The notes under the pieces were generated by a model. That model was not told where the DNA came from. It did not search any database and saw only the letters and a list, made by a program, of their open reading frames with translations. 64,000 nt of DNA from Chloropicon primus (lineage: Eukaryota): assembly GCA_023205875.1 (NCBI GenBank), contig CP060761.1:1-64000 (forward strand), given 5' to 3'. Below are positions 913 to 29,400 of the stretch, one piece after another (within the stretch, counting starts at the first letter, position 1; the number at the start of each line of letters is the position of its first letter). The translations under genes were made by a program, and so were the position numbers.

Positions 913-2462
913 AACCGCATGTTTTCCTTCTGGTATAGGTTTAAGTGTGATCTGGGTTTTAGTCGGCCCTAAACCAGGTCGCATAAGACGACGGATTCCA
1001 GCAGAAGAGTGGATCAGGGTAAGGTTTACGATTGGACCTCGTTATTCTCTGGTGCCCTAGATTGCACTCCACCCGGAACAGGTCTCTCCATCACGGACTC
1101 CATTCACATAACATCATCATCATCCATGGAGGTCTGTGGTTTGGGTTTTAGTGGTCCGACAGATGGACCTGTACAGGTTCGACGACGACGGAAACATACA
1201 CCATATTAGAGGAGTATTCAAATATAAAATACAAGCCCCTTCTGACAAAGTTTTACAGCCATCGGACACGAACTGGATCCGTCACTCCACTATTCGTGCC
1301 AAAAAGTAGGCCCCAAAATGGACAATAATAGCTACAGAATCATATCATACACACCTACATTACACAATCAACTCAGCATGAACCAAACCAAGAGGATCCA
1401 AGCCACGAACAACTACCCACAGACACCTCTCCTCGCCTTCCCTCCTCTCCCACACTCCAGCATTGCCCCAAGAACACCTCACCTCTCCCACCCCTCGACG
1501 CCGGTGCCCGGACCCGAGCACACATCATCTGGCCCCTCCTCCCACTCATTGTCATGGTCCATGACTCATGGAGCAAGGCCACTGAGATCAACGCATTCCA
1601 ATAACCCCAATTGGGCCCCCACAGACCCAAAGACACCTCAAAATCAATCATGTGCCTCTCCGCTGGACCTCCATTAGCCCCTCCACAGGCCCTCCATCAG
1701 CTCCCCATGAGGTTCTCCAAGCCTAATCAGAAGATGCCACCAAAGTCCACCGATGAACCCAACACACAGAAGCATTCCAACACTAACATAACAACCCAAG
1801 ATCACCTCCTCACCTCCCCTCTCCTCTCCGCCATCACCCAGCAGGCTGGGCTTGGGCGTGGTGATTCACCATGCATTGTGTCAGCCCCCGGGCCGGGGCC
1901 ATGGAGCAGAAGAACTACTGAAGGGGCACGAACAAGTCACCCAAAACCACAGAGATGCCCTTCGACCCACTCATTGCCCCCAACATTCTCCTCCCCTCCC
2001 CTCCCACACTCCTGCATTGCCCCAAACAGCCTCCTCCCTCTCCCTCGACGGCGGTGCGGGTGGGCTGCCCCTTGTCCCATCCCATCTGTGCCTCTCTCCT
2101 GGCCACCCTCAGCCCAAGCAAACCTCTTGGAACCTTGGCAAAGCAAACGCATGAAGCGCCTCTGCATTCCTTGGGGACCTCAAGTTGGGGTTAGGGCCTG
2201 GTTCCTTTGGGCATCCGATGTGAGTGACCCAACCGGGGCTTCGCCTGGTCGCGGCTCGCGCGTCGTCGGGTCGGTCGGATGGGGTCGGGGCTCGTGAAGA
2301 TCGAGTTGAGGACGCAGGGGTAGAGAGTGCAGAAGTAAATAGAAAAGATCTAATATTATTAAAATAGGATTCTACTTAGGAAAATTTGTTAGTTTAATTT
2401 TTTTATCATCATAACGCCTTTCATTCTCTTGATGAAGGCTTGGGCGTAAAACTTTTCACGCT

Positions 2463-5400
2463 CTACTTCTTCTCATTTCTCAACTTGGCAATAGCCTTGA
2501 GCTTCATGCGGGCCTTCTGCCACTCAGGTGCAGCGGTAGTTGTGCTCGTCCTCGATCTTCTGAAAGAATGGAGCTTCTCCACGCTCCTGAGCTTGGAGCG
2601 AGCCTGGTTGATGAGCTTGCAGAAGTCAGACTTCTCATCCGTGGACATGCTGCTGTTGAGCAGAGTTCCTTGCTCGATCTTGTTCAAGCTCTGCTTCAAG
2701 ATATGAAGCTTGTCAGAGGTGAGCTGCTGGGTGTTGCCCTCCTTGCTGACCACCTCATCCTGGCTGTCAACGAGCGTGGTACTCAGCTCCTGCCAGGTGT
2801 GCATCGCAAACTCAAGATCCCTTTCCGTGGTAGTCTCAACGACACTCTGAGAAAGCTGCGAGATGGAAGCTTCAAACTCCTTTCCAAGCAACTCCATGCT
2901 TTCCTCGATACTGCTCTCAGACACGTTTGCGGTCTGCTTCGTGCTTGTGCTGTAAAGAGGGTTGCTGTAAGCAGACGAAGAGATGTTCTTGCTCCTGCCG
3001 TCGTCAAGAAGCTCGCTACCCTCGCCGTCACTTCCTTGTGGCGACTCGGCTATGGATGGCATAATGTTCTCGTCCTCCTCTTCCTTGTCGAACAGAGGGT
3101 TGGACAAGAAAGACATTCTGGCACCAGACTTCATAGCAATCGTGCTCTTCCTGGACTTTCCTCCAGAAAGTCCGAACATAGGGTTCATCAAAAGCATGCT
3201 CTGTCTCGAGTTTGGCTCGGACTTGTTGGATCCCTGGCTCACCGCAGAATACTGGGCGGAGCTTGGAGCAGCATTGCTCTCTCTCTTTCTCTTCTGCCTG
3301 ACGTACACGAAGGCAAGTCCCATCATGCAGCAGACGGCTGCACCGACGATGCCACCGACCATGACCATGGAAACGGAAGCAGTGGAAACCTCGCCCTCGG
3401 CGTCTCCGGTCTCGGACTCGAGCTTTCCGCCTTCCGTCTCCTCGACCTCGGAGGACGTCGTATCGCTTCCGTCGTGCGACTGGCCATCTTCAGAGTCTTG
3501 TCCCTCGCCATCAGAGTTAGAATCTTCATCATCCGTCACAACGCCAGACCCATCTGTCGAGTTCGAGGCTGGAGGTGGTGGCGGCGGCGACAGCTGCTCG
3601 CACCCGCTTGTGGTACAAGACTGGAAGTCCTGCGTGTAAGCACACTCCTTTCCATTGTTTTCGGCTGAGCTGACGATGTTGAAAAGTCTGCATCTAGTGT
3701 AGAGTCCAACGCCGGCATCCAGCTTGCATTCACCGTAGTCAGAGAATTCTCCAACGCAATCCACTGGAGCTCCGCATCCCTGGGAGGAGCACTTGAGCTC
3801 GTTGTGAGTGTAGTCACACTGCGTTCCGTTGTATGCGCTTGGTACAGAAACTTCGTACCTCCTGCACTTGACGTTCTCCTCAGCAATAGTATCGAACCAG
3901 CATCCGCCTTGGTCCATCCATTTGCCAACACAGTCCACTGGCTGAGAGCATTCCTCGTTGGTGCACTGCTTGAGGTTGTCCACGAATGGACAGGCAAAAC
4001 CGTTGTGAGCAGCGTTGGTGCTGATCTTGTAGTGCCTGCACTTCTTGTTCTTGTGGTTCTCCTCATCGTAGAAGCACTCGTCATACTTGTCCCAAGCTCC
4101 GACGCAGTCGACAGGCTGCGTGCAACCGCTCACAGTGCACTGCACATAGCTATCAGCGTATGGGCAAGCATATCCACTGTGGGCAGCAGCTCTCTCAACC
4201 TCGTAGGTGCGGCATCTCTTGTTCTTGTGAGACTCGGCGTCATGGGTGCACACACCATAGTCGCCCCATTGTCCCAAGCAGTCCACTGGCTGGGCGCAGC
4301 CCTCAGTGGTGCACTGCTTGTAGGAGTTCTTGTATGGGCATCCGTAACCGTTGTGTGCGGCACTCGTGCTGACAGAGTAAGTCCTGCACCTCCTGTTCTT
4401 GTGGTCGTTCGTGTCGTGGAAGCAGGCGCCGTAGGCACCCCAGTCTCCAACACAGTCCACAGGCTGCTCGCAGTTCTCTTGCTCGCATTCCACAAGCCCA
4501 TCCTTGAATGGACACTGAGTGCCTCCCAAGTCCGCCTTGGTGCTGACAAGATAGGTTCTGCACCTCTCGTTCTTGTGATCAGCAGCAACGTGGTTGCAGC
4601 TGCCGTACGTAGTCCACTCGCCCTCGCAGTCCACAGGCTGGCCGCAGCCGCTCTTGGTGCATTGCTTGAGCTTGTCCTCGTGTGGGCAAGCAAAACCGTT
4701 GTTGGCGGCAGCCTGGCTCACACTGTACACGCGGCAGCGCTCGTTCTCGTGATCGTTCTCGTCGTAGTGGCAGGCATCGTAGTCACCCCAAGATCCGACG
4801 CAGTCCACAGGCTGGGCGCACTCCTCGGTGGTGCACTGCTCGAACTCGTTGGCGTATGGGCAAGCATAACCGTTGTGAGTCGAAGGCACGGCAACCTTGT
4901 ACAGTCTGCACCTTTTGTTCTTGTGCTCCTCGGTATCGTGGTAGCACTCGGCATACTCGTCCCAGGCTCCGACGCAGTCAACAGGCTGGACGCAGAGCTC
5001 GGTGCTGCACTGGATGTAACTGTCAGTGTATGGGCAAGCATATCCATTGTGGGCAGCAGACCTCTCAACCTCGTAAGTCCTGCACTTCTTGTTCTTGTGA
5101 GAGTCATCATCATGAATGCAAGATCCCCACTTGGACCATTCTCCCAAGCAGTCCACAGGCTGAGAGCAGCCCTCAGTGGTGCACTGCTTGTAGGTGTTCT
5201 TGTATGGGCATCCATAACCGTTGTGGGCGGCAAGGGTGCTGACAACGTAGTGCCTGCACCTCCTGTTCTGGTGATCGTCGCTGTCATGGAAGCAAGAGCC
5301 ATAAGGACCCCAGTCTCCAACACAGTCAACAGGCTGAGAGCAGCTCTGAGTAATACACTCGATCTTGCCGTCCTTGTAAGGACAGTCCTTTCCGTTCAAT

Positions 5401-8400
5401 GCTGGGCTCGTGTTGACTTCGTAGGTTCTGCACCTCTCATTCACGTGAGTGTCATCAACGTGCTTGCAGCTGTCGAAGGAAGTCCACTCTCCCTGGCAGT
5501 CCACAGGCTGACCGCAGCCGCTCTTGGTGCACTGCTGGAGCTTGTCCTCGTGTGGGCAAGCGTAACCGCTGTTAACAGCAGGCGTGGTCACAGCGTAGAC
5601 ACGGCAGCGCTCATTATGGTGATGCAGGTCGTTGTGGCTGCAAACGCCGTACGCCTGCCAAGCACCGACGCAGTCAACAGGCTGAGAGCACTTGTCAGTA
5701 GTGCACTGCTCAAGCTCGTTGGCGTATGGGCAAGCATAACCGTTGAAGGCAGAAGGCACAGAGACCTTGTAGAGTCTGCACCTCTTGTTCTTGTGAAGCT
5801 CCTCGTCATGGAAGCACTCATCATACTCGTCCCAGGCTCCGACGCAGTCAATAGGCTGAGCGCAGCCACTCACGGTGCACTGCACATAGCTGTCAGTGTA
5901 AGCGCAAGCGTAGCCCATGTGGGCAGCAGCTCTCTCCACGACGTAGGTGCGGCATCTGGAGTTGGTATGCTGGTTCTCATTGTAGACACAATCCGTGTAA
6001 GATCCCCATTGTCCCAAGCAGTCCACTGGCTGGGCGCAGCCCTCGGTGGTGCACTGCTTGTAGGCATTGGCGTATGGGCATCCGAAACCGTTGTGCGCGA
6101 CATCGGTGCTGACGATGTAGTTTCTGCACCTCCTGTTCTTGTGGTCCTGGTCATCGTGGTAGCACATTCCGTACTCGCCCCAGTCGCCAACGCAGTCAAC
6201 TGGCTGGGTACAGGTACTGCTTTCGCACTCGACCAAACCATTCAAGTGTGGGCACTGCTTACCTCCCAAATCAGGGACAGTAGTGACCTTGTAAGCCCTG
6301 CACCTCTCGTTCTTGTGACCGTCTTCCACATGGTTACAGTTTCCGTACTCGCTCCACTCGCCCTCGCAGTCCACAGGCTGGCCGCAGCCGCTCTTGGTGC
6401 ACTGCTTGAGCTGATCCGCATGTGGGCAAGCGTAACCGTTGTTAAGAGCGCTTTGCAAAACGCTGTACACGCGGCAACGCTCGTTCTCATGCTCGTAGTT
6501 CTCGTAGTGGCAGGCATCGTAAGCACCCCAGGCTCCAACGCAGTCAACAGGCTGAGGGCACTCATCCACGGTGCACTGCTTGTACTCGTTCCTGTATGGG
6601 CAAGCATATCCGTTGTGGGTAGCAAAGACACGGACCTTGTACAACCTGCATCTCTTGTTCTTGTGAGTATCCTTGTCATAGTAGCAAGATCCATAGATGT
6701 CCCAGTCTCCCTCGCAGTCAACAGGCTGTGTGCAACCGCTCACAGTGCACTGCTGGTAGCTGTCGGCGTATGGGCAAGCATAACCACTGTGGGCAGCAGC
6801 TCTGCTCACAGCGTAAGTCCTGCACTTCTTGTTCTTGTGGGTCTTGTCGTCATGCGTGCAAGCTCCGTACTGCTCCCAAGCTCCCAAGCAGTCCACTGGC
6901 TGGGCGCAGCCCTCAGTGGTGCACTGCTTGTAGGCGTTGGCGTACGCACATCCGTAACCGTTGTGCGAAGCAGCGGTGGCGATCTTGTAGTTCCTGCACC
7001 TCCTGTTCTTGTGGTCCGCATCGTCATGGAAGCAGGCGCCGTAGGCCTCCCAGTCCCCAACGCAATCGACAGGCTGGGTACAGTCATCCGTGGTGCACTC
7101 AACCAAACCATTCAAGTGTGGGCACAGCTTGCCGTTCAAAGAAGCTGGAGTAACAACCTTATAGGTTCTGCAGTGGTCGTTCTTGTGGCCATCCTCAACG
7201 TGCTTGCAGGCATCGTAAGTTGTCCAGGCGCCCTCGCAGTCCACAGGCTGTCCGCATCCACCGGTCATGCACTGTCTTTCGTCATGCTCGAAAGGACAAG
7301 TGTAACCGTCGTTCAATGCAACCTGGGTCACACTGTACATGCGGCAACGCTCATTCGTCTCCTCCTTGCTGTTGTAATGGCATGGCTCATAGTCACCCCA
7401 AGTTCCGACGCAGTCCACTGGCTGGGCGCACTCCTCGGTGGTGCACTGCTCAAGCTCGTTGGCATATGGGCAAGCATAACCGTTGTTGGTAGCGGCGACA
7501 GAGATCTTGTACAACCTGCACCTCTTGTTGTTGTGGGCCTCGGCATCATTGAAGCACGCGGCGTACTTATCCCAGGCTCCGACGCAGTCAACAGGCTGGG
7601 CACAGCCCTCGCTTGTGCACTGACCGTAGTTGTCAGCGTACGCGCAAGCATAACCGCTGTGTGCAGCAGGTCTGCTCACAACGTAAGTTCTGCACTTCTT
7701 GTTCTTGTGGGTCTGATCGTCATGAATGCAGGCATCATATTCACTCCAAGCTCCAACGCAATCCACTGGCTGCTCGCAGCCCTCGGTGGTGCACTGCTTG
7801 TAGGCGTTCAGGTATGGGCAACCCACACCGTTGCTAGCAGCGTCAGTCGCGATGGCGTAGACTCTGCACCTCAAGTTCTTGTGCTTGTTGCTGTCGTGGA
7901 AGCAAGTGTCATAAGCACCCCAGGCTCCAACACAGTCAACAGGCTGAGAGCAGCTGTTGGTCGTGCACTCGATCTTCTTGTCCTCGAATGGGCAGGCCTT
8001 ACCGTTCAAGTCAGCATCAGTGATGACCTTGTAAGTCCTGCACTTCTCGTTCTTGTGGCCGTCCGCAACGTGCTCACAGCTTCCGTACAAGCTCCACTCG
8101 CCCTCGCAGTCCACAGGCTGGCCGCAGCCGCTCTTGGTGCAAGTCCTGAGCTTATCCTCGTGTGGGCAAACAAAACCGTTGTTCAACGCTGGCTGAGAGA
8201 CCTCGTAGACACGGCAGCGCTCGTTCTCGTGGCTGTGTTTCAGATACTCGCAAGCAGCGTACTCAGACCAGGCTCCAACGCAGTCGACAGGCTGGGCACA
8301 CTCCTCGGTGGTGCACTGCTCGAGCTTGTCGGTGTATGGGCAAGCATAACCGTTGTTGGTGGCGGCAACAGAGATCTTGTACAACCTGCACCTCTTGTTG

Positions 8401-11400
8401 TCGTGGACTTCCTTGTTGTGGAAGCAATCAGAGTAGTCATCCCAGGCTCCGACGCAGTCAACAGGCTGCACGCAAAGCTCGGTGCTGCACTGGACATAGC
8501 TGTCAGCGTATGGGCAAGTGAAACCGTTGTGGGCAGAAGCTCTGCTCACGACGTAAGTCCTGCACTTCTTGTTCTTGTGAGTATCGTCATCGTGAACACA
8601 GTCTCCGTATGTACCCCAAGCTCCCAAGCAGTCCACTGGCTGGGCGCAGCCCTCGGTGGTGCACTGCTTGTAAGCGTTGGCGTATGGGCATCCGAAACCG
8701 TTGTGGGCCACGTTGGTTGAGATGGCATAGACTCTGCACCTCCTGTTCTTGTGGTCCTCCTTGTCATGTGCGCAGGCGCTGTAGGCACCCCAGGCTCCAA
8801 CGCAATCAATAGGCTGAGAGCACTCGTCGGTACTGCACTCCACGAGTCCATCCTTGTGTGGGCACTCCTGTCCTCCGAGACCGGAATCCGCAGAAATCTT
8901 GTAGGATCTGCACTTCTGGTTCTTGTGCTGTCCATCAACGTGTGTACAGCTATCCCAGGCGCTCCACTCACCCTCGCAATCGATAGGCTGGCCGCAACCG
9001 CTCTTGGTGCAATGGTTCAAGTTGTGAGTATGAGGACATTCGTATCCGTTATGCAAGGCGGTCTGAGAAATGGTGTAGACACGGCAACGCTCGTTCTCAT
9101 GACCTTCAGAGACATACTTGCAGTCTCCGTAGTGGCTCCAGGCTCCGACACAGTCCACAGGCTGAGAGCACTCCTCCAAGGAGCACTGCTCAAGCTCATG
9201 GGTGTATGGGCAAGCATGACCATTGTTGGCCGAGGCAACAGAGATCTTGTAGGTCCTGCACTTCTTGTTCTTGTGGGCCTCCTCGTCGTGAGTGCACTGG
9301 GAGAAGTTATCCCAGGCTCCCACGCAGTCAACGGGCTGGGCGCAATCAACAGTGGTGCACTGCTCGAGCTTGTCTTCGAAAGCACATGCAATTCCATTGT
9401 GGGCAGACTCGACAGCGACTGTGTAAGTTCTGCACTTCTTGTTGTCATGCGCTTCCTTATCGTGGTAGCACTCAGAGTAGTCATCCCAGGCTCCGACGCA
9501 GTCAACAGGCTGCGTGCAAAGCTCGGTGCTGCACTGGATGTAGCTGTCAGCGTATGGGCAAGTGTAACCGTTGTGAGAAGAGGCTCTGCTCACGACGTAA
9601 GTCCTGCACTTCTTGTTCTTGTGGTCCTTCTCGTCGTGCACACAAGCTCCGTACTGCTCCCAAGCTCCCAAGCAGTCCACTGGCTGGGCGCAGCCCTCGG
9701 TGGTGCACTGCTTGTAAGCGTTGGCGTACGCACATCCGTAACCGTTGTGCGCGACATCGGTAGTGATGGCGTAGACTCTGCACCTCCTGTTCTTATGGTC
9801 TTGGACATCGTGGAAGCAGGCATCGTAAGCACCCCAGGCTCCGACGCAATCGGTTGGCTGAGAGCACTCCTCGGTGGTGCACTCGACCTTCTTGTCCTCG
9901 AATGGGCACTCGGTACCACCCAGTGCCGCCTCGGTGTTCACAACATAGGTTCTGCACCTCTCATTCTTGTGGCCAGCTTCAACATGCTTGCAGCTGCTGT
10001 ACGATTCCCAAGCTCCGACACAGTCCACAGGCTGGCCGCAGCCGCTCTTGGTGCAGTGCTTGTGCTTGTCTTCGTAAGGACAAGTGTAACCGTTGTTCAA
10101 TGCCTTTTGGCTGACGCTGTACACACGGCAACGCTCGTTCTCGTGCTCATTGTCCTTGTACAAGCATGCTCCGTAGTTGTCCCAAGCTCCGACGCAGTCG
10201 ACAGGCTGAGCGCATCCGTCGTTGGTGCACTGCTCAAGCTCGTTGGCGTATGGGCAAGCATAACCGTTGTGGGCAGCGGCGACAGAGACCTTGTACAACC
10301 TGCACCTCTTGTTCTTGTGAGCATCCTCGTCGTGGAAGCACTCGGCATAATCATCCCAGGCTCCGACGCAGTCAACAGGCTGGTCACACAAGTCAGTGCT
10401 GCACTGGATGTACATGTCAGCGTATGGGCAAGCATATCCACTGTGGGCAACAGCCCTCTCAACCTCGTAAGTCCTGCACTTCTTGTTCTTGTGCATGTCC
10501 TTGTCGTAGATGCAAGCATCGTACTCGGTCCAGGCACCCAAGCAGTCCACTGGCTGGGCGCAGCCCTCGGTGGTGCACTGCTTGTAGGCGTTCAAGTAAG
10601 CACATCCGAAACCGTTGTGCGCGGCGTTGGTGGTGATGGCATAAGTCCTGCACCTCCTGTTCTTGTGGTCATCATCGTCGTGGAAGCAGGCTCCGTACGA
10701 GCCCCAGTCTCCAACACAGTCAACAGGCTGAGAGCAGCTGTTGGTCGTGCACTCGATCTTCTTGTCCTCGAATGGGCAAGCCTTACCGCCAAAGTCCTTA
10801 ACAGTGGTGACCTTGTAAGTCCTGCACCTCTCGTTCTTGTGGCCGTCCGCAACGTGCTCACAGCTTCCGTACAAGCTCCACTCGCCCTCGCAGTCCACAG
10901 GCTGGCCGCAGCCGCTCTTGGTGCAAGTCCTGAGCTTGTCCTCGTGTGGGCAAGCATAACCGTTGTTCAACGCTGGCTGAGAGACCTCGTAGACACGGCA
11001 GCGCTCGTTCTCGTGGTCAGACACCTCGTAGCTGCACTCGCCATAAGCTCCCCAAGATCCAACGCAGTCGACAGGCTGAGCGCATCCGTCGTTGGTGCAC
11101 TGCTCAAGCTTGTCAGCGTATGGGCAAGCAAAACCGTTGTGGCCAGACGCAACAGTAACCTTGTACAACCTGCACCTCTTGTTCTCGTGGGCCTCCTCAT
11201 CGTGGTAGCACTCGGCATACTCGTCCCAGGCTCCGACGCAGTCCACTGGCTGCGTGCACAAGCTGGTGCTGCACTGGATGTAGCTGTCGGCGTATGGGCA
11301 AGTGTAACCGTTATGAGAAGAGGCTCTGCTCACGACGTAAGTCCTGCACTTCTTGTTCTTGTGGTCCTTCTCGTCGTGGATGCAAGCACCGTACTCCTCC

Positions 11401-14400
11401 CAAGCTCCCAAGCAGTCCACAGGCTGCGTGCAGCCCTCGGTGGTGCACTGCTTGTAGGCATTGGCGTATGGGCAACCCACACCGTTGTGCGCGACATCGG
11501 TAGTGATGGCGTAGACTCTGCACCTCCTGTTCTTGTGGTCTTGGACATCGTGGAAGCAGGCATCGTAAGCACCCCAGGCTCCAACGCAATCGACAGGCTG
11601 AGAGCACTGGTCCTTGGTGCACTCGACCTTCTTGTCCTCGTATGGGCACTCGGTTCCATGCAAGTGTGCTTCAGTGGAAATGCTGTAGGTTCTGCACTTC
11701 TGGTTGATGTGCTCTCCCGCAACGTACGCGCAGCTGTCCCAGGATCCCCACTCGCCTTCACAGTCGATAGGCTGGCCACAGCCCACGTTTGTGCACTGGG
11801 TAAGGCTATCCTCGTAAGGGCAGTCGTATCCATTGTTCAAGGCAATCTGGCTGATGCTGTAGACACGGCAGCGCTCGTTGGCATGATCGTCAGCAACGTA
11901 CTTGCACTCACTGTAGACTCCCCAGGCTCCGACGCAGTCCACAGGCTGGGCACACTCCTCGGTGGTGCACTGCTCAAGCTTGTCGGCGTATGGGCAAGCA
12001 TAGCCCTCTGACGCGGCAGGCACGGAGACCTTGTAAAGTCTGCACCTCTTGTTCTGGTGAGAGTCCTTGTCGTGGAAGCAAGTGCCGTACTCGTCCCAAG
12101 CTCCAACACAGTTGACTGGCTGCGTGCAACCCTCAAAAGTGCACTGAACATAGCTGTCAGTGTATGGGCAAGCATATCCACTGTGGGCAACAGCCCTCTC
12201 AACCTCGTAAGTCCTGCACTTCTTGTTCTTGTGGGCCTCCTTGTCGTAGACGCAAGCATCGTAATCGGTCCAGGCACCCAGGCAGTCCACTGGCTGGGCG
12301 CAGCCCTCGACAGTGCACTGCTCATACTTGTCGGTGTATGGGCAGCCCACGCCGTTGTGGGCAGCATTGGTAGCAACAACGTAGGTTCTGCACCTCCTGT
12401 TCTTGTGGTGCATGTCATCATAGAAGCAAGTTCCGTAAGAGCCCCAGTCTCCGACGCAATCAACAGGCTGAGAGCAGCTGTTGGTCGTGCACTCGACCTT
12501 CTCGTCCTCGAATGGGCACTGGTTTCCGCCCAAGTCGGCCTTGGTGATGACCTTGTAGGTTCTGCACCTCTCGTTCTTGTGCTCCTTTGCAACGTACTCG
12601 CAACTGGTGTACAAGCTCCACTCGCCCTCGCAGTTCACAGGCTGGCCGCAGCCGCTCTTGGTGCACTGCACAGCAGCCTCAACGTGTGGGCAAGAGTAGC
12701 CACCGTTAGCAGCAGGCTGAGAAATGACGTACTCGCGGCAACGCTCGTTCTCGTGATCACCCTCGTCGTACTCGCACTTGGAGTAGTCAGACCATCCTCC
12801 AACGCAGTCCACTGGCTGGGCGCAGCCCTCGCTGGTGCACTGCTTCAGTGTGTTGGTGTATGGGCAAGCGTATCCACTGTGTGCCGCAGGAACAGTGACC
12901 TTGTACAACCTGCACCTCTTGTTCTTGTGGTTCTCGGTGTCGTAGTTGCACTCGGCATACTCCTCCCAGGCTCCGACGCAGTCAACAGGCTGCGTGCAAA
13001 GCTCGGTGCTGCACTGGATGTAGCTGTCGGCGTATGGGCAAGTGTAACCGTTGTGGGCAACGGCTCTGCTCACGACGTAAGTCCTGCACTTCTTGTTCTT
13101 GTGAGACTCCTCGTCATGGACACAGGCATCATACTCAGTCCAAGCTCCCAGGCAGTCCACTGGCTGGGCGCAGCCCTCGGTGGTGCACTGCTCGAACTCG
13201 TTCGCGTATGGACAGGCGTAACCAGAGAAGTCGTCGAAGGTGCTGATGTTGTAGCTTCTGCACCTCCTGTTCTTGTGGTCACTGTTGTCATGGAAGCAGG
13301 CGCCATAGGAGTTCCATGCACCGACGCAGTCCACAGGTTGCTGGCACTTGTCCTGAACGCACTCCACGAGGTCGTGCTCATGAGGGCACTTCTTACCACT
13401 GAGATCAGACTCCGTGGTGACCTTGTACTGCCTGCACTGCTCATTCTCGTGGGTGTCTGGGTTATGCATACAAGGGCTGTAAAGACCCCACTCTCCCTCG
13501 CAGTCCACGGGCTGGCCGCAACCGCCCTTGGTGCAATGCCTCTCTTGGTCCTTGTGGAGGCATTGCATGCCGTTGTACTCGGCGACTCTCGTCACGTTGT
13601 ACATGCGGCACCTCTCATTCTCGTGATCCAAGCTCTCGTAATTGCAAGCGCCATATTCAGTCCAGCTACCCAAGCAGTCAACAGGCTGCGAGCACTCTGA
13701 CATGGTGCACTCGGTGATGTTGTGTGGGTGCAAGCACTTGTGTCCATTGTTCGCCTCTGGCGTAGACACCTTGAAGACGCGGCATCTGTCATTTGCATGA
13801 AGGTCCTCAACGTACTTGCATTGAGAGTACTCGTCCCAGGCTCCGACGCAGTCCACTGGCTGATCGCACATGTCGGTGCTGCACTGGACGTAGCTGTCGG
13901 CGTATGGGCAAGTGTAACCGTTGTGAGAAGAGGCTCTGCTCACGACGTAAGTCCTGCACTTCTTGTTCTTGTGAGCATCCACGTCATGGGTGCATTCCGT
14001 GTACTCACTCCAAGCTCCAACGCAGTCCACAGGCTGCGTGCAGCCCTCGGTGGTGCACTGCTTGTAGGTGTTGGTGTATGGGCAACCCACACCGTTGTGC
14101 GCGACGTTGGTGGTGATGGCATAAGTCCTGCACCTCCTGTTCTTGTGGTCGTTCGTGTCGTGGAAGCAGGCTCCGTAGGAGTTCCAGTCTCCAACACAGT
14201 CAACAGGCTGAGAGCAGCTGTTGGTCGTGCACTCGACCTTCTGGTCCGCGATTGGGCAGGCCTTACCGTTCAAGTTTGCGGTGACAGCAACCTTGTAGGT
14301 TCTGCACCTCTCGTTCTTGTGGCCGTGCGCAACATGGTTGCAAGAGCTGAACAGGGTCCAATCACCCTCGCAGTCCACAGGCTGGCCGCAACCGCTCTTG

Positions 14401-17400: not shown

Positions 17401-20400
17401 GTGTATGGGCAAGCATTACCGTTGTGGGCAGACTCGACAGAGACCTTGTAAGTTCTGCACTTCTTGTTCTTGTGCAGCTCCTCATCATGAGAGCACTCAG
17501 AGTAGTCATCCCAGGCTCCGACGCAGTCCACTGGCTGAGTGCACAAGTTGGTGCTGCACTGGATGTAGCTGTCGGCGTATGGGCAAGTGTAACCGTTGTG
17601 AGAAGAGGCTCTCTCGACGACGTAAGTCCTGCACTTCTTGTTCTTGTGCGATTCCTTGTCGTGGATACAAGCACCGTACTCCTCCCAAGCTCCCAAGCAG
17701 TCCACTGGCTGGGCGCAGCCCTCGGTGGTGCACTGCTTGTAGGCGTTGGCGTATGGGCATCCGAAACCGTTGTGGGCCACGTTGGTGGTGATGGCATAGA
17801 CTCTGCACCTCCTGTTCTTGTGGTCACTGGTGTCATGGAAGCAGGTGCTGTAGGCACCCCAGTCCCCAACGCAATCGACAGGCTGAGAGCACAAATCGGT
17901 GCTGCACTCGACCTTCTTGTCCTCGAATGGGCACTTGTTGCCACCAAAGGCATCAGGGACAGAGACCTTGTAGGTTCTGCACTTCTCGTTCTTGTGCTCA
18001 GCATCAACATGGTTGCAAGCGCTCCAGAGCTCCCAGGCACCCTCGCAATCCACAGGCTGGCCGCAGCCGCTCGTGGTGCAGTGGGTCAAACCATCTTCGT
18101 TAGGACAAGTGTAACCGTTGTTAGCAGCAGCTTGGCTGACGCTGTACATGCGGCACCTCTTGTTCTCGTGGTTATCCTTGTTGTAGTGGCAGGCATCGTA
18201 GTTGCCCCAAGATCCGACGCAGTCGACAGGCTGGGCACACTCCTCGGTGGTGCACTGCTCGAGCTTGTCGGTGTATGCGCAAGCATAACCGTTGTTGGCA
18301 GAGGCAACAGAGATCTTGTACAACCTGCACCTCTTGTTCTTGTGAGCGTCCTTGTCGTGAGAGCACTCGGCATACTCGTCCCAAGCTCCGACGCAGTCCA
18401 CAGGATGGGCGCACTCTTCAGTCGTGCATTGAACGTACTTGTCCGCGTAAGCGCAAGAGTAGCCATCATAGGCAGATGGTCTGTCGACGTTATAGGTGCG
18501 GCACCTCTTGTTCTTGTGCGTCTTCTCATCGTGTGCGCAAGCCCCGTACTCGTCCCAAGCTCCCAAGCAGTCCACAGGCTGCTCGCAGCCCTCAACGGTG
18601 CACTGCTTGTAGGTGTTGACGTATGGACATCCGAAACCGTTGTGTGCGGCGTTGGTGCTCACAATGTAAGTCCTGCACCTCAAGTTCTTGTGCTTGTTGC
18701 TGTCATGGAAGCATACGCCGTAGGCACCCCAGTCTCCGGCGCAATCAACAGGCTGAGAGCAGCTGTTGGTCGTGCACTCGACCTTCTTGTCCTCGAATGG
18801 GCACTGGACACCGTTCAAGTCAGCCTTGGTGGTGACCTTGTAAGTCCTGCACCTCTCGTTCTTGTGACCATCCTTAAAGTGCTGGCAGCTTCCATAAGGA
18901 TCCCAAGCACCCTCGCAGTCCACAGGCTGGCCGCAGCCGCTCTTGGTGCAAGTCCTGAGCTTGTCCTCGTGTGGGCAAGCATAACCGTTGTTGGCGGCAG
19001 CCTGGCTCACACTGTACACACGGCAGCGCTCGTTCTCGTGGTCAGCCTCCTCGTAGTGGCAGGCGTCATAGGCTCCCCAAGATCCGACGCAGTCGACAGG
19101 CTGGGCACAACCGTCGTTGGTGCACTGCTCAAGCTCATTCGTGTATGGGCAAGCATGGCCGTTGTGGGCAGACTCGACAGAGACCTTGTAAGTCCTGCAC
19201 TTCTTGTTCTTGTGCAGCTCCTCATCATGAGAGCACTCAGAGTAGTCATCCCAGGCTCCGACGCAGTCCACTGGCTGAGTGCACAAGTTGGTGCTGCACT
19301 GGATGTAGCTGTCGGCGTATGGGCAAGTGTAACCGTTGTGAGAAGAGGCTCTCTCGACGACGTAAGTCCTGCACTTCTTGTTCTTGTGCGATTCCTTGTC
19401 GTGGATACAAGCACCGTACTCCTCCCAAGCTCCCAAGCAGTCCACTGGCTGGGCGCAGCCCTCGGTGGTGCACTGCTTGAAGGCGTTGGCGTATGGGCAT
19501 CCGAAACCGTTGTGGGCCACGTTGGTGGTGATGGCATAGACTCTGCACCTCCTGTTCTTGTGGTCCTTGTCGTCATGGAAGCAGGTGCTGTAGGCACCCC
19601 AGGCCCCAACGCAATCGACAGGCTGAGAGCACTGGTCCTTGGTGCACTCGACCTTCTTGTCCTCGAATGGGCAGACCTTACCGTTCAAGTCAGCCTTGGT
19701 GGTGACCTCGTAGGTTCTGCACTTCTCGTTCTTGTGGCCGTCCGCAACATGGTTGCAAGCGCTGTACTGGCTCCACTCACCCTCGCAATCCACAGGCTGG
19801 CCGCAGCCGCTCGTGGTGCAGTGGGTCAAACCATCTTCGTTAGGACAAGTGTAACCGTTGTTAGCAGCAGCTTGGCTGACGCTGTACATGCGGCACCTCT
19901 TGTTCTCGTGGTTATCCTTGTTGTAGTGGCAGGCATCGTAGTTGCCCCAAGATCCGACGCAGTCGACAGGCTGGGCACACTCCTCAGTGGTGCACTGCTC
20001 GAGCTTGTCGGTGTATGCGCAAGCATAACCGTTGTTGGCAGAGGCAACAGAGATCTTGTACAACCTGCACCTCTTGTTCTTGTGAGCGTCCTTGTCGTGA
20101 GAGCACTCGGCATACTCGTCCCAAGCTCCGACGCAGTCCACTGGCTGAGCACAGCCACTCACGGTGCACTGAACATAGCTGTCAGAGTACGCGCAAGCGT
20201 ATCCGTTATGAGACGACACTCTTGTCACAGCGTAAGTCCTGCACTTCTTGTTCTTGTGGGTCTTGTCATCATGCATGCAAGCATCGTACTCGCCAAAGGC
20301 ACCCAAGCAGTCCACAGGCTGGGCGCAGCCCTCGGTGGTGCACTGCTTGTAGGCGTTCAAGTAAGCACATCCGAAACCGTTGTGCGCGGCGTTGGTGGTG

Positions 20401-23400
20401 ATGGCATAAGTCCTGCACCTCCTGTTCTTGTGGTCGTTCGTGTCGTGGAAGCAGGCTCCGTAGGAGTTCCAGTCTCCAACACAGTCAACAGGCTGAGAGC
20501 AGCTGTTGGTCGTGCACTCGACCTTCTGGTCCGCGATTGGGCACTGGACACCGTTCAAGTCAGCCTTGGTGGTGACCTTGTAAGTCCTGCACCTCTCGTT
20601 CTTGTGACCATCCTTAACGTGCTGGCAGCTTCCGTAGGAAGTCCACTCGCCCTCGCAGTCCACAGGCTGGCCGCAGCCGCTCTTAGTGCAGTGCTTGAGC
20701 TTGTCCTCGTGTGGGCAAGCATAACCGTTGTTCTCTGAAGCTCTTGTAACGACATATGTTCTGCACCTTTCGTTCTCATGATCGGCATCAATGTACATGC
20801 AAGTTCCATACTCGCTCCAAGATCCGACGCAGTCGACAGGCTGAGCGCATCCGTCGTTGGTGCACTGCTCAAGCTCGTTTGTGTATGGGCAAGCATTACC
20901 GTTGTGGGCAGACTCGACAGAGACCTTGTAAGTTCTGCACTTCTTGTTCTTGTGCAGCTCCTCATCATGAGAGCACTCAGAGTAGTCATCCCAGGCTCCG
21001 ACGCAGTCCACTGGCTGAGTGCACAAGTTGGTGCTGCACTGGATGTAGCTGTCGGCGTATGGGCAAGTGTAACCGTTGTGAGAAGAGGCTCTCTCGACGA
21101 CGTAAGTCCTGCACTTCTTGTTCTTGTGCGATTCCTTGTCGTGGATACAAGCACCGTACTCCTCCCAAGCTCCCAAGCAGTCCACTGGCTGGGCGCAGCC
21201 CTCGGTGGTGCACTGCTTGAAGGCGTTGGCGTATGGGCATCCGAAACCGTTGTGGGCCACGTTGGTGGTGATGGCATAGACTCTGCACCTCCTGTTCTTG
21301 TGGTCCTTGTCGTCATGGAAGCAGGTGCTGTAGGCACCCCAGGCCCCAACGCAATCGACAGGCTGAGAGCACTGCTCCTTGGTGCACTCGACCTTCTTGT
21401 CCTCGAATGGGCAGACCTTGCCATTGTCAGAGACAGGGACAAAGACCTTGTAGGTTCTGCACTTCTCGTTCTTGTGGCCGTCCGCAACATGGTTGCAAGC
21501 GCTGTACTGGCTCCACTCACCCTCGCAATCCACAGGCTGGCCGCAGCCGCTCGTGGTGCAGTGGGTCAAACCATCTTCGTTAGGACAAGTGTAACCGTTG
21601 TTAGCAGCAGCTTGGCTGACGCTGTACATGCGGCACCTCTTGTTCTCGTGGTTATCCTTGTTGTAGTGGCAGGCATCGTAGTTGCCCCAAGATCCGACGC
21701 AGTCGACAGGCTGGGAGCACTCCTCAGTGGTGCACTGCTCGAGCTTGTCGGTGTATGCGCAAGCATAACCGTTGTTGGCAGAGGCAACAGAGATCTTGTA
21801 CAACCTGCACCTCTTGTTCTTGTGAGCGTCCTTGTCGTGATCACAAGAGCTGTAAGAGTCCCAAGCTCCGACGCAGTCAACAGGCTGGGAGCAGCCGCTC
21901 TTGGTGCACTGCTCAAGCTTGTCTTTGAAAGGACAAGAAATTCCGTTGTGGGCGGACTGCACACTAATCTTGTAAGTCCTGCACTTCTGGTTCTTGTGTC
22001 CCTCGTCATCATGAGAGCACTGAGAGTAGTCATCCCAGGCTCCGACGCAGTCCACTGGCTGAGTGCACATGTCGGTGCTGCACTGGATGTAGCTGTCGGC
22101 GTATGGGCAAGCGTAACCGTTGTGGGCAACAGCTCTGCTCACGACGTAAGTCCTGCACTTCTTGTTCTTGTGCGATTCCTTGTCGTGCACACAAGCTCCG
22201 TACTCCTGCCAAGCTCCCAAGCAGTCCACTGGCTGGGCGCAGCCCTCGGTGGTGCACTGCTCGTAGGCGTTGGCGTACGCACATCCGAAACCGTTGTGGG
22301 CCACGTTGGTGGTGATGGCATAGACTCTGCAGCGCTCGTTCTTGTGGCTGCTCGCAACGTGCTTGCAGGCACTGTAAGCACCCCAGGCTCCAACGCAATC
22401 GACAGGCTGAGAGCACAAATCGGTGCTGCACTCGACCTTCTTGTCCTCGAATGGGCAGACCTTGCCGTTGAAGGCATCAGATACAGAGACCTTGTAGGTT
22501 CTGCACTTCTCGTTCTTGTGGCCGTCCGCAACATGGTTGCAAGCGCTGTACTGGCTCCACTCACCAAGACAATCGATAGGCTGACTGCAGCCATTCTTAG
22601 TGCAGTGGGTCAAACCATCCTCGTTAGGACAAGTGTAACCGTTGTTAGCAGCAGCTTGGCTGACGCTGTACATGCGGCACCTTTCGTTCTTGTGCCCATC
22701 AGCAACGTACTTGCAGTCAGCGTAATTGCCCCAGGCTCCAACGCAGTCCACAGGCTGAACACATTGCTCAGTGGTGCACTGCTCGAGCTTGTCGGTGTAT
22801 GCGCAAGCATAACCGTTGTTGGCAGAGGCAACAGAGATCTTGTACAACCTGCACCTCTTGTTCTTGTGAGCGTCCTTGTCGTGATCACAAGAGCTGTAAG
22901 AGTCCCAAGCTCCCACGCAGTCCACTGGCTGAGCACAGCCACTCACGGTGCACTGAACGTACTCGTTCGCGTACGCGCAAGCGTATCCGTTATGAGACGA
23001 CACTCTTGTCACAGCGTAAGTCCTGCACTTCTTGTTCTTGTGGGTCTTGTCATCATGCATGCAAGCATCGTACTCGCCAAAGGCACCCAAGCAGTCCACT
23101 GGCTGGGCGCAGCCCTCGGTGGTGCACTGCTTGTAAGTGTTGACATATGGGCAACCCACACCGTTGTGCGCGGCGTTGGTGGTGATGGCATAAGTCCTGC
23201 ACCTCCTGTTCTTGTGGTCGTTCGTGTCGTGGAAGCAGGCTCCGTAGGAGTTCCAGTCTCCAACACAGTCAACAGGCTGAGAGCAGCTGTTGGTCGTGCA
23301 CTCGACCTTCTGATCCGCGATTGGGCACTGGACACCGTTCAAGTCAGCCTTGGTGGTGACCTTGTAAGTCCTGCACCTCTCGTTCTTGTGACCATCCTTA

Positions 23401-26400
23401 ACGTGCTGGCAGCTTCCGTAGGAAGTCCACTCGCCCTCGCAGTCCACAGGCTGGCCGCAGCCGCTCTTGGTGCAAGTCCTGAGCTTGTCCTCGTGTGGGC
23501 AAGCATAACCGTTGTTGGCGGCAGCCTGGCTCACACTGTACACACGGCAGCGCTCGTTCTCGTGGTCAGCCTCCTCGTAGTGGCAGGCGTCATAGGCTCC
23601 CCAAGATCCGACGCAGTCGACAGGCTGAGCGCATCCGTCGTTGGTGCACTGCTCAAGCTTGTTAGCATATGGGCAAGCATTACCGTTGTGGGCAGAGACG
23701 ACAGAGACCTTGTAAGTTCTGCACTTCTTGTTCTTGTGAGCGTCCTTGTCATGCTTACACGCGTCATAGTGCTCCCAGGCTCCGACGCAGTCCACTGGCT
23801 GAGTGCACAAGTTGGTGCTGCACTGGATGTAGCTGTCGGCGTATGGGCAAGTGTAACCGTTGTGAGAAGAGGCTCTCTCGACGACGTAAGTCCTGCACTT
23901 CTTGTTCTTGTGCGATTCCTTGTCGTGCACACAAGCTCCGTACTCCTGCCAAGCTCCCAAGCAGTCCACTGGCTGGGCGCAGCCCTCGGTGGTGCACTGC
24001 TCGTAGGCGTTGGCGTACGCACATCCGAAACCGTTGTGGGCCACGTTGGTGGTGATGGCATAGACTCTGCAGCGCTCGTTCTTGTGGCTGCTCGCAACGT
24101 GCTTGCAGGCGCCATAAGCACCCCAGGCTCCAGCGCAATCGACAGGCTGAGAGCACTGGTCCTTGGTGCACTCGACCTTCTTGTCCTCGTATGGGCACTT
24201 GTTGCCACCAAAGGCATCGGAGACGGAGACCTTGTAGGTTCTGCATCTCTCGTTCTTGTGGCCGTGAGTAACATGCTTGCAATTATCATAAGCGCTCCAC
24301 TCGCCCTCGCAGTCCACTGGCTGGGAGCAAAGGTTTTGAGTGCATTGCTGCAACCCATCCTTGTGTGGGCAGACATAGCCATTGTTCAGCTCGAGCTGAG
24401 TAATGCTGTAAAGACGGCACCTTTCGTTCTTGTGCCCATCAGCAACGTACTTGCAGTCAGCGTAATTGCCCCAGGCTCCAACGCAGTCCACAGGCTGAAC
24501 ACATTGCTCAGTGGTGCACTGCTCGAGCTTGTCGGTGTATGCGCAAGCATAACCGTTGTTGGCAGAGGCAACAGAGATCTTGTACAACCTGCACCTCTTG
24601 TTCTTGTGAGCGTCCTTGTCGTGATCACAAGAGCTGTAAGAGTCCCAAGCTCCCACGCAGTCCACTGGCTGAGCACAGCCACTCACGGTGCACTGAACGT
24701 ACTCGTTCGCGTACGCGCAAGCGTATCCGTTATGAGACGACACTCTTGTCACAGCGTAAGTCCTGCACTTCTTGTTCTTGTGGGTCTTGTCATCATGCAT
24801 GCAAGCATCGTACTCGCCAAAGGCACCCAAGCAGTCCACAGGCTGGGTGCAGCCCTCGGTGGTGCACTGCTTGTAGGTGTTGACATATGGGCAACCCACA
24901 CCGTTGTGCGCGGCGTTGGTGGTGATGGCATAAGTCCTGCACCTCCTGTTCTTGTGGTCGTTCGTGTCGTGGAAGCAGGCTCCGTAGGAGTTCCAGTCTC
25001 CAACACAGTCAACAGGCTGAGAGCAGCTGTTGGTCGTGCACTCGACCTTCTGATCCGCGATTGGGCACTGGACACCGTTCAAGTCAGCCTTGGTGGTGAC
25101 CTTGTAAGTCCTGCACCTCTCGTTCTTGTGACCATCCTTAACGTGCTGGCAGCTTCCGTAGGAAGTCCACTCGCCCTCGCAGTCCACAGGCTGGCCGCAG
25201 CCGCTCTTGGTGCAAGTCCTGAGCTTGTCCTCGTGTGGGCAAGCATAACCGTTGTTGGCGGCAGCCTGGCTCACACTGTACACACGGCAGCGCTCGTTCT
25301 CGTGGTCAGCCTCCTCGTAGTGGCAGGCGTCATAGGCTCCCCAAGATCCGACGCAGTCGACAGGCTGAGCGCATCCGTCGTTGGTGCACTGCTCAAGCTC
25401 GTTTGTGTATGGGCAAGCATTACCGTTGTGGGCAGAGACGACAGAGACCTTGTAAGTTCTGCACTTCTTGTTCTTGTGAACATTCTCATCATGAGAGCAC
25501 TCAGAGTAGTCATCCCAGGCTCCGACGCAGTCCACTGGCTGAGAGCACATGTTGGTGCTGCACTGCTCAAACTTGTCCTCATATGGACAAGCGTAACCGT
25601 CGTTCAGCGGGGTCACTGTGATTTTGTAGAACCTGCACCTCTTGTTCTTGTGCGAATCCTTGTCATAGAAGCACGAGTAGTAATCCCCAAAGGTACCAAC
25701 GCAGTCAACAGGCTGGGCACAATGCTCAGTGGTGCACTGCACATAGCTGTCAGCGTATGGGCAAGCGTATCCGTTGTGAGAAGAGGCTCTCTCGACGACG
25801 TAAGTCCTGCACTTCTTGTTCTTGTGGACATCGTCGTCGTGTTTGCAAGCACCGTAATCACCAAACGCACCCAAGCAGTCCACTGGCTGGGCACAGCCCT
25901 CAGTGGTGCACTGCTTGTACTCGTTAGCATACGCGCAGCCGTAACCGTTGTGTGCCACGCTGGTGGTGATCTTGTAGTTCCTGCACCTCCTGTTCTTGTG
26001 GTCCTTGTCGTCATGGAAGCAGGCGCCGTAGGCACCCCAGTCCCCAACGCAATCGACAGGTTGAGTGCACGAATCGGTGCTGCACTCGACCTTCTTGTCC
26101 TCGAATGGGCACTTCTTGCCGTTCAAGTCCTCTTTTGTGGTGACCTTGTAGGTTCTGCACTTCTCGTTCTTGTGGCCGTGCGCAACGTGCTTGCAAGAGC
26201 CATAAGCTCCCCACTGGCCTTCACAATCGACAGGCTGGCCGCAGCCGTTCTTGGTGCACTGGTTCATCTTGTCCTGGTGTGGGCAAGCATAACCGTTGTT
26301 CAACGCAGGCTGGGTGATGCCGTAGAGACGGCAACGCTGGTTCGAGTGATCACTCTCCACGTAGGAACAAGTCCCGAAAGCTCCAAATGAGCCGACACAG

Positions 26401-29400
26401 TCCACAGGCTGAGCGCAGCCTACGTTTGTGCACTGCTCAAATTTGTTGGCGTATGGGCAAGCATGGCCACTGTGGGCCGCACTTGTTGTGAGCTTGTACA
26501 ACCTGCACCTCTTGTTCTTGTGGGTTTCGGTGTCATGGCTGCAATCGCCATAAGAATCCCAGGAGCCAACACAATCCACAGGCTGAGCGCAACCAGACTT
26601 GGTGCACTGCTTGTAGTCGTTGGCATACGCGCAGGAATATCCGTTGTGTGCAGAGGTGACTGTGATCTTGTACAATCTGCACCTCGTGTTGGTGTGATCC
26701 TTCGAAACGTAGGAACAGGATCCGTAGGCATCCCAGGCTCCCACGCAGTCCACGGGCTGAGCGCAACCATCGGTGGTGCACTGCTTGTAAGTGTTGACAT
26801 ATGGGCAACCCACACCGTTGTGCGCGGCGTTGGTTGTGATGGCATAAGTCCTGCACCTCCTGTTCTTGTGGTCACTGGTATAGTGCTTGCACGAGCCGTA
26901 GGCACCCCAGTCTCCGGCGCAATCAACAGGCTGAGAGCAGCTGTTGGTCGTGCACTCGACCTTCTGGTCCTCGAATGGGCACTGGACACCGTTCAAGTCA
27001 GCCTTGGTGGTGACCTTGTAAGTCCTGCACCTCTCGTTCTTGTGACTATCCTTAACGTGCTGGCAGGTGCCGTAAGCTCCCCACTCGCCCTCGCAGTCCA
27101 CAGGCTGGCCGCAGCCGCTCTTGGTGCAAGTCCTGAGCTTGTCCTCGTGTGGGCAAGCATAACCGTTGTTGGCGGCAGCTGTGGACACGGCGTAGACACG
27201 GCAGCGCTCGTTCTCGTGGTCAGCCTCCTCGTAGTGGCACTCACCATAAGCTCCCCAAGATCCAACGCAGTCGACAGGCTGGGCACAACCGGTGGCCGTA
27301 CAATCCTCTGCTTCGTTGGCGTAAGGACAGGCCGCACCACCAAACATGCTTGCGACAGAGACCTTGTACAGTCTGCACCTCTTGTTCTTATGCTCATCGG
27401 TGTCATGTTTGCAAGGGCCATAAGGAGCAAAACCTCCTTCACAATCCACAGACTGGAGGCAACCAGTCATCGTGCACTGCACATAGCTGTCAGCGAAGGG
27501 GCAAGTGTAACCGTTGTGAGAAGAGGCTCTCTCGACGGCGTAAGTCCTGCACTTCTGATTCTTGTTCGTCGTCAGATCACGCTCGCACTCAGAGTAGTCA
27601 TCCCAAGCTCCCAAGCAGTCAACCGGCTGGGCGCAGCCCTCGGTGGTGCACTGCTCAAAGGCGTTGGCGTATGGGCAACCGTAACCGTTGCTGGCCTTGT
27701 TGGTGGCGATCTTGTAGACTCTGCACCTCCTGTTCTTGTGGTCCTTGTCGTCATGGAAGCAGGTGCTGTAGACACCCCAGGCTCCAACGCAGTCGACAGG
27801 CTGGGCACAAGTTGCTTTCGTGCACTCCTCCTTGTTATGGGTGTGAGGGCATCCTTTTCCATTGTGCTTGGCCGCGATGCTGACCTTGTACAATCTGCAC
27901 TTTTCGTTCTTGTGACCAGCAGCAACGTGCTTACACGTGCCATAAGAATCCCAAGCACCCACGCAGTCCACAGGCTGAGAGCAAGTGGAAGTGGTGCACT
28001 GCTTGTAGTTGTTCTGCTGTGGGCACTGATAACCGTTGTGCGCAGCTTGAACACTGATCTTGTAGAGCCTGCATTTCTCATTCTTATGACCATCCTTGTT
28101 GTATCCACAGACGTTTCCGTCAGCATGTGTAATCCAAGAATCCCAAGCACCAGCACAGTCCACAGGCTGAGAGCAGCCACCAGTAGTGCAAGACTCGTAC
28201 ATGTTGGCGAAGGGGCATCCATAACCGTTGTTTGCGGCATTGGTTGCCACCTTGTAGTACCTGCACCTCCTGTTCTTGTGGTCAGACGCGGTATGCTTGC
28301 AAGCTCCGTACTCGTCCCAAGAGCCAGCACAGTCCACAGGCTGAGAGCAACCAGACTGGGTGCAAGACTTGTACATGTTGGTGTATGGGCATCCATAACC
28401 GTTGTGGGCTGCCGCGACAGTGATCTTGTAGTGCCTGCACCTCTTGTTCTTGTGGACAGAGGAATCGTGGAAGCAAGCACCATATGGATCCCAGGATCCA
28501 ACACAGTCCACAGGCTGAGAGCAACCAGACTGAGTGCACTGCTTGTACATGTTGGTGTATGGGCACCCATAACCGTTGTTCGCGGCGTTGGTGCTGTACT
28601 TGTAGTGCCTGCACCTCTTGTTCTTGTGGTCCTTTCCATCGTGGTAACAAGATCCATAGGCATCCCAAGCACCGACGCAGTCAACAGGCTGAGCGCATCC
28701 ACCAGTAGTGCACTGCTCAAAGTTGTTCGTGTAGGCACACTTGAAACCGTTGTGGGCAGCAGCAGTGGTGATCTTGTAGTTCCTGCATCTCTTGTTCTTG
28801 TGATTAGAAGCCTCGTGCTTGCACGAGCCATAAGCCCCCCAAGCCCCGACACAGTCCACAGGCTGAGCGCAGCCAGAAGTGGTACAGGACTTGTAGTTGT
28901 TAGCGTATGGGCAAGAATATCCATTGTGGGCGGCATTCTTGCTAATCAGATAGAACCTGCAACGTTCGTTCTTGTGAACGCTTGGCGCAAGAAGAGATCT
29001 CCTCGAGAAAGGCATGGACAAGTCCATTCCATCAGGAGACAACTTCGGGTTCGCAAGATCCAACTTGAGGCCACCAACATACGAGCAAGAACTGTAAGAG
29101 CCCCAAGCACCGACGCAGTCCACAGGCTGAGAGCAACCAGAAGTGGTGCACTGCTTGTACATGTTGGTGTATGGGCATCCGTAACCGTTGTGAGCAACGT
29201 TGGTAGCGATCTTGTAGAACCTGCACTTTCTGTTCTTGTGGTCCTTGGAATCATGCTTGCATGGGCCATATGGATCCCAAGCACCAGCGCAGTCCACAGG
29301 CTGAGAGCAACCAGACTGAGTGCACTGCTCAAAGTTGTTGGTGAATGGGCATCCATAACCGTTGTGAGCGGCGCTCTTTGTGTACTTGTAAGTTCTGCAC

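Follow-up and report, generated by a model that had tools for sequence, protein, structure and literature searches.

Protein repeats commonly grow by duplication of multi-domain blocks, the classic case being the seven-module unit of nebulin (available part of PMC1553488). In the super-repeats of the titin A-band and the seven-module super-repeats of nebulin, blocks were duplicated, each position has its own module class and conserved residues, and similarity is higher across than within repeats (excerpts of PMC10665226 and PMC1553488); the titin super-repeats match the spacing of the myosin filament (excerpt of PMC10665226). The Drosophila protein Dumpy is described, in the available part of PMC2930355, as a giant membrane-anchored extracellular protein whose cysteine-rich modules, of more than one type, recur as multi-module units (EGF-DPY-EGF triads), with a ZP domain and 78 exons, part of its gene evolving in concert by unequal crossing over; concerted evolution of domain repeats is reported to be uncommon (excerpt of PMC5100051). 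Here we analysed the first 64,000 nucleotides of contig CP060761.1 of the green alga Chloropicon primus (the window), in which a single open reading frame (ORF) encodes a giant protein made of thrombospondin type 1 repeats (TSRs). TSR modules of five classes follow one another in cyclic order, exact DNA tracts join them in register, the order recurs in other lineages and the class-specific residues are constrained. Position-specific classes, conserved residues, block duplication and the higher similarity across repeats are shared with titin and nebulin. In contrast to these, the modules are extracellular TSRs of a unicellular alga, not Ig/FnIII domains or nebulin motifs, the period is not strict and no partner filament is known; unlike Dumpy, the protein has one module family in five classes, one ORF and a long conserved tail. 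Multi-domain super-repeats are already known; we came across neither TSR super-repeats nor a giant TSR protein of algae nor this family in the literature searched, which scarcely covered subscription journals, and supplementary files 1-12 (of 20) of PMC6731263 do not mention the family.

The ORF (2463-36266, minus strand), taken from the ORF listing and its translation, is uninterrupted and gives a product of 11,267 aa with no internal stop and a calculated mass of about 1.25 MDa, predicted to be a single-pass surface protein. From the N to the C terminus it consists of a signal peptide, a leader, 183 modules (mostly of 58 aa with six cysteines), a stalk, one hydrophobic helix and a tail. Modules 45-181 (3942-27800, minus strand; acidic) have the five-module period and, because the gene lies on the minus strand, make up the membrane-proximal three quarters of the array. 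Unsupervised clustering of these modules yielded five classes, P1 to P5 in N-to-C order, with nearly equal scores for five and six clusters (K=5, -6914; K=6, -6903). The classes correspond to all five motif types listed by an earlier analysis made from the letters alone (the sequence-only reading): DHKNRRCR/TTEGCAQ (P1), CLGAW/YADSY (P2), CVGAWDdY (P3), HENERCR/TKSGCGQ (P4) and CEGEW/KVEC (P5). Cyclic order was kept by 120 of 136 neighbours, compared with 27 ± 5 and a maximum of 51 in 10,000 shuffles, and amino-acid identity at a lag of five modules was 0.628 against a null of 0.528 ± 0.008. As the sequence-only reading had predicted, modules clustered by position modulo five, with near-complete class clades in the DNA tree (P1 26/26, P2 26/26, P3 28/30, P4 27/29, P5 25/26). 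The junction that it had seen at 4621, 5491, 6361, 7231, 8101 and 8971 (870-bp steps) and then 1044 bp later (10015) was found at all of these positions.

The period is not invariant, since 21 of the 25 P5-to-P5 spacings measured five modules and the other four measured six. Where one single-module insertion had been proposed, there are thus four six-module units, all on the minus strand. In three of them the extra module is a copy of P3, doubled at modules 57-58 (25365-25712), 78-79 (21711-22058) and 150-151 (9162-9509), the last unit, which the sequence-only reading had noticed, being collinear also in the C. roscoffensis orthologue; the remaining unit contains an extra atypical module, 118 (14904-15077). 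Gly57 had Glu or Gln at column 5 of the next module in 23 of 25 cases, compared with 8 of 157 otherwise. P4-P5 pairs also stand together in the aperiodic N-terminal region and in relatives.

Exact tracts of at least 50 bp between modules joined modules of the same class, in register, in 190 of 190 cases. They form a patchwork with lags of 6, 10, 16, 20, 26, 36, 46 and more modules, and tracts with these named lags lie in a young zone of 10-module (1740-bp) duplication at 17187-25538 (minus strand). A patchwork of this kind is expected from unequal crossing-over or conversion, in agreement with the earlier suggestion that such exchange maintains the repeat, and because all 190 tracts are in register, recombination preserves module order. 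DNA identity at lag 10 was 0.93 in modules 58-75, 0.91 in modules 81-105 and 0.71 in modules 128-181. The 1740-bp period of the sequence-only reading is therefore real and young, but local, being restricted to modules 58-105. The 60-letter lines that had been noted as identical or near-identical agreed at 60/60 positions for 34201 and 34375, 17221 and 18961, and 22681 and 24421, but at only 42/60 for 18961 and 20701. The distal region, previously taken for a simple monomer array, turned out to be more complex: modules 1-44 (27801-35594, minus strand), which are basic and lack a five-module period, include 14-module (2523-bp) and 16-module (2871-bp) duplications, two 88-aa modules with 30-aa inserts carrying RRSLL (31526 and 29003), and P4/P5-type pairs at modules 17-18 and 33-34.

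Among named organisms, the closest relatives of the repeat protein come from C. primus and C. roscoffensis. The C. roscoffensis orthologue (P0365, WZN58774.1), encoded on a 1.79-Mb contig by a gene model that is 5′-truncated and begins inside the array, has a tail 79% identical to that of the window protein and 68 TSR modules, for which its database label 'ricin B-type lectin domain' is unsuited. Its modules keep the cyclic order in 63 of 65 neighbours and are collinear with window modules 133-183; in 29 of 45 pairs the collinear module was the best or second-best match in its own class. P0365 carries the doubled-P3 unit matching window modules 150-151, duplicated there, and in place of the 10-module duplication it has a 26-module duplication that is peculiar to it and has nearly identical copies. 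It has lost exactly five modules in register (170-175 fused) compared with the window and with P0001, which retains them and has a tail 99% identical to that of P0365. The shared order and doubled-P3 unit, together with the unshared 10- and 26-module duplications, indicate by comparison of the two species that period five and one six-module unit predate the species split and that periods 10 and 26 are young, so that the retained five-module register of the sequence-only reading is borne out as an old order common to the species. Order was also kept in P0004 and P0002 (tails 48% identical) and in P0003 (28%), with permutation P of 0.00005-0.00075. The C. primus paralogue P0087 (QDZ25627.1), a protein of 2522 aa whose tail is 28% identical, lacks the pentamer (P 0.92); with L010 it represents a same-tail paralogous lineage in which modules partly alternate in pairs with GCGQ-PIDCE junctions. 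Both P0087 and P0365 share the module type, the membrane helix and the tail motifs with the window protein. Because assemblies can collapse repeats in register, the lengths of the shorter relatives P0007, P0009 and P0215 were not used as evidence for natural length variation. One in-frame stop each, in module 3 of L001 and the last module of L006, interrupts relatives that are otherwise intact, through sequencing error or decay.

Class-specific constraint was tested after exclusion of seven odd modules (47, 51, 108-110, 118 and 125). Two mislabelled modules (117 and 127) were still present in the rate tests (G, likelihood ratio and constant-but-different) and were removed from the split-half, foreign-module and between-species tests. 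Within classes, the ratio of nonsynonymous to synonymous rates (dN/dS) was 0.32-0.38. Rates varied by column and class (G 261 vs 194 ± 20), and the likelihood ratio for class-specific rates was 289 compared with 172 ± 18, maximum 209, in 40 shared-profile simulations. Between the halves of the split array, the rate pattern gave r 0.39 for the same class and -0.19 for other classes, and 36 foreign modules gave r 0.40, the highest value among 120 label permutations. In foreign modules, diagnostic residues were kept in 212 of 298 own-class cells compared with 125 of 1033 other-class cells. Between species, with cells defined on modules 45-130 and scored in modules 131-181, diagnostic cells changed in 75 of 411 cases and the same columns of other classes in 229 of 804 (P 9e-5). 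For the 16 foreign modules with DNA, protein identity was 0.67 to their own class and 0.50 to others, the own class being best in 16/16, and codon identity at invariant columns was 0.62 and 0.60 (own class best in 5/16); in the window itself the silent class signal is modest (0.79 vs 0.72). Judged from these comparisons, the class-specific residues are under constraint, four tests being positive and a fifth marginal, and the neutral divergence that would have made the periodicity a mere duplication relic in the sequence-only reading was not seen. Diagnostic residues cluster at columns 5, 7, 33 and 41, which the predicted strand order places at the module end nearest the preceding module, and at columns 24, 28, 30, 48-50 and 57.

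The modules are TSRs of a variant type. The C-terminal 1188 aa matched the Pfam family TSP1_spondin (PF19028) with 102.3 bits (cut-off 41), and the N-terminal 1000 aa scored only 19.4 bits. Six cysteines are present in 182 of 183 modules, the remaining one being the last module, which was clipped during module extraction. AlphaFold2 models (pLDDT, the predicted local distance difference test, 76.6 and 84.9) showed a three-strand fold whose best matches were the TSRs of properdin and thrombospondin-1, with a Foldseek E of 6e-6 and a VIA Z of only 4.5. Canonical TSR motifs are WxxW and CSxxCG, and both are present in canonical matches such as P0006. The modules described here share the Pfam match, the six cysteines and the predicted fold with these families; they differ in having W-x-x-Y, no CSxxCG in close relatives either, a third cysteine shifted to strand B (N-x-x-C-R-x-Y) instead of the CSxxCG loop, a conserved His-x-Asn (Asn23 invariant, His21 near-invariant), an extra hairpin predicted at columns 15-24, which is the site that takes inserts, and 183 copies. 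Two or more copies of the variant module were found in only 16 of 214 fetched proteins, and a pentamer profile gave 0 matches to PDB sequences.

Flanking the array on the same strand are a predicted signal peptide (36174-36266; hydrophobic stretch around aa 10-32 by hydropathy) and a leader (35595-36173) with an acidic pro-like segment, three R-x-L(L/Q) motifs (35960, 35714 and 35657) and one further TSR-like module, split by a Tyr/Ser-rich insert; the same leader layout was found in P0008, P0009, P0215 and P0236. Within the split module, 35740-35880 (minus strand) encodes Tyr-rich YVAP repeats and a YSRYSY-rich stretch, a possible cross-linking segment. With the two RRSLL sites there are five R-x-L(L/Q) motifs, all on the minus strand and confined to the leader and hairpin/loop inserts. 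At the same module loop, relatives contain acidic insertions that are about 17-76 aa long and mostly end in R-x-L(L/Q). RXL motifs serve, according to the available part of PMC4557024, in the processing of diatom wall proteins, so nicking of the protein at these sites is plausible by analogy. At the other end, two atypical terminal modules (182-183; 3594-3941), whose character is kept in relatives, are followed by a Pro/Ser/acidic stalk (3372-3593), a predicted transmembrane helix and basic RQKRKR (3300-3371), and a cytoplasmic tail of about 277 aa (2466-3299), aligned with relatives. The tail motifs NPMF, NPLF, NPLY, LNKIEQ, NQARxxLRxV and EWxxxRxKL are invariant in 6/6 aligned relatives. For the tail, no Pfam family scored above cut-off, the ESM Atlas gave no usable match and the PDB only weak coiled-coil or membrane-helix matches; the motifs resemble NPxY sites of the integrin type, an actin-binding WH2 motif and a helix that binds calmodulin, a likeness that the libraries did not confirm. 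Net charge per module falls from +3.25 (modules 7-42) to -1.6 and then -3.0 towards the membrane, and the module array (3942-35594) contains 505 histidines, about three per module.

Sequencing runs X1, X4 and X5, which are not on record as RNA, showed intron-type joints in neighbouring genes, and run X2 did not. Over the 3′ part of the gene (30 bins of 2400-12000), X1 covered 30/30 bins, X4 23/30 and X5 9/30, and the 5′ end had no cover in these three runs, a lack that is uninformative; the giant gene is likely transcribed. Allelic copies were considered as an explanation of differences in X1 depth but dismissed, since X1 is RNA-like and its contig depth does not reflect copy number. Contigs of X1, X4 and X5 also match 79 bp at 9634-9712 and then continue into AT-rich sequence, which likely reflects another TSR-type gene elsewhere in the genome.

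The explanation that we favour, with a little more than even confidence, is a higher-order repeat of five TSR classes in which in-register recombination copies the order and purifying selection keeps the class residues, probably for neighbour-specific packing, with P4-P5 as a likely special joint. An ancestral five-module block would have been duplicated, and after the classes had become distinct (a silent difference of about 0.55 from one class to another), exchange would have been efficient only in register, so that gains and losses came mostly as whole pentamers and lineage-specific secondary periods arose, 10 here and 26 in C. roscoffensis. The ends of each module would have become specialised to pack against particular neighbours, as suggested by the diagnostic columns, the Gly57-Glu/Gln5 coupling and the co-occurrence of P4 and P5. 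For the protein we predict export, perhaps with nicking at the R-x-L sites, and anchorage through one helix. A TSR domain is about 4-5.5 nm long, and on this basis the array may form an acidic rod that measures at most about 0.7-1 micrometre, ends in a basic tip and links the layered wall to the cortex of the cell; its five-module rhythm would govern local bending and stiffness rather than exact length. A more elaborate version, in which the protein is an extracellular titin-like scaffold with five specialised TSR junctions, a repeating kink at each P4-P5 pair, a coil or a regular lattice in the layered wall, R-x-L nicking and a cortex tie through the new tail, is speculative and rather unlikely.

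Several points weigh against this explanation. In the protein tree P1 was not one clade (15/26), and recombination violates the trees used. The constraint tests respond alike to contacts between modules and to epistasis within one module, and the latter can produce class-specific constraint with no need for order. Constant-but-different cells were only marginally in excess (21 vs a null of 13.0 ± 3.6, maximum 25 in 400). A residual silent class signal is present in foreign modules (0.59 vs 0.55 for all same-residue codons, P 0.008), whose class labels are partly circular and were anchored on terminal modules for 8/16. The Gly57/Glu5 coupling is confounded by physical linkage. Junction packing, which we infer, was neither backed nor contradicted by the AlphaFold2 models, which gave no confident geometry: the predicted template modelling score (pTM) was 0.31 for the pentamer (21-row alignment) and 0.46 for P4-P5 (28 rows). 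Finally, Chloropicon cells are 2-4 micrometres in size and their walls are smooth and layered, with no projecting fibres according to the available part of PMC5656628.

Among the rivals, periodic binding sites, in which P1 or the P4-P5 pair would bind a ligand or partner about every five modules with the other modules as spacers, fare best and are still improbable. P1 evolves most slowly (tree length 2.74 vs 3.45-4.95) and is the sole near-neutral class (net charge -0.4 vs -1.7 to -3.3), a P4 of P0003 is 79% identical to a window P4 despite the 28%-identical tail, doubling mostly affects the spacer-like P3, and position-specific conservation in titin has been read likewise (excerpt of PMC10665226). 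However, the 41 diagnostic conserved cells are spread over all five classes, between-species identity is alike for P1-P4 (0.83-0.85; P5 0.77) and no ligand is known. We consider it unlikely, too, that the order is a functionless duplication relic, as in higher-order satellite repeats, with recombination needing identity and each class constrained by its fold. Homology alone would produce the in-register tracts, growth by multi-domain duplication is common, six-module units persist, P0087 and the N-terminal array do without the pentamer, and one constraint test was marginal. Against this, the order persists in lineages whose tails are only 28% identical and whose silent signal is largely erased, homogenisation of the neighbouring N-terminal array in this gene left no order, and irregular units add P3, not a random class, in three of four cases.

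In a strict form, with a period fitted to a partner filament and a unit number setting length as in titin or nebulin, the molecular ruler or helical pitch suggested by the sequence-only reading was not supported and is very doubtful. Most units are of exactly five modules, the 58-aa module is near-invariant and relatives change length in steps of five, but the array tolerates six-module units, and one of these is older than the species split; in addition, P0002 has a four-module spacing (its assembly may be chimeric), inserts in relatives' modules reach about 76 aa, a paralogue lacks the pentamer and no periodic partner is known. A junction-tuned, length-flexible rod is more likely than a ruler. 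Misassembly as the source of the periodicity or of the 1740-bp blocks can be dismissed as barely credible, and the periodicity is not an assembly artefact: exact repeats reach 714 bp, and copy number in 12,000-34,600, outside the interval checked against reads, could be off, but within the pentamer array the longest exact repeat (523 bp) is shorter than one 870-bp period, units are about 70% alike, the ORF is unbroken, X1 contigs cover every bin of 2400-12000, the interval in which read and contig support was checked (74/95 at 99% or better), and the C. roscoffensis orthologue is collinear.

At the start of the window lie telomere-like CCTAA(A)n and CCTAACAA repeats with variant units (1-218) and a 198-bp subtelomeric repeat (217-910); Chloropicon telomeres are (TT)TTTAGG in the available parts of PMC12301720 and PMC6731263, which together with the closest named relatives of the repeat protein makes a Chloropicon lineage likely. 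The giant gene is the last large gene before the likely chromosome end. Compact eukaryotic genes follow the repeats, including a neighbouring glutamyl-tRNA reductase with chlorophyte relatives at about 65%. A class A penicillin-binding protein (transglycosylase and transpeptidase) encoded at 55492-58416 (minus strand) suggests plastid peptidoglycan in this green alga, and a low-complexity ORF rich in Gly and Asn, which contains 57- and 144-bp repeats and matches no Pfam family, lies at 38218-39251 (plus strand). At 40695, 41708 and 50076 every covering run differs from the window (two substitutions and one omitted base), possibly through assembly errors or another allele.

Returning to the five-class higher-order repeat, it offers a rare clean case of a protein super-repeat that can be tracked across species within one exon, with an old and constrained primary period (5) and young, lineage-specific secondary periods (10 and 26). 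Its 137 natural variants in five classes make selected and inherited domain order testable with module pairs of 116 residues. The locus also points to an undescribed family of 1.25-MDa surface proteins, with a variant TSR and a conserved tail, in a picoalga that is abundant in the ocean and whose wall proteins have received little study.

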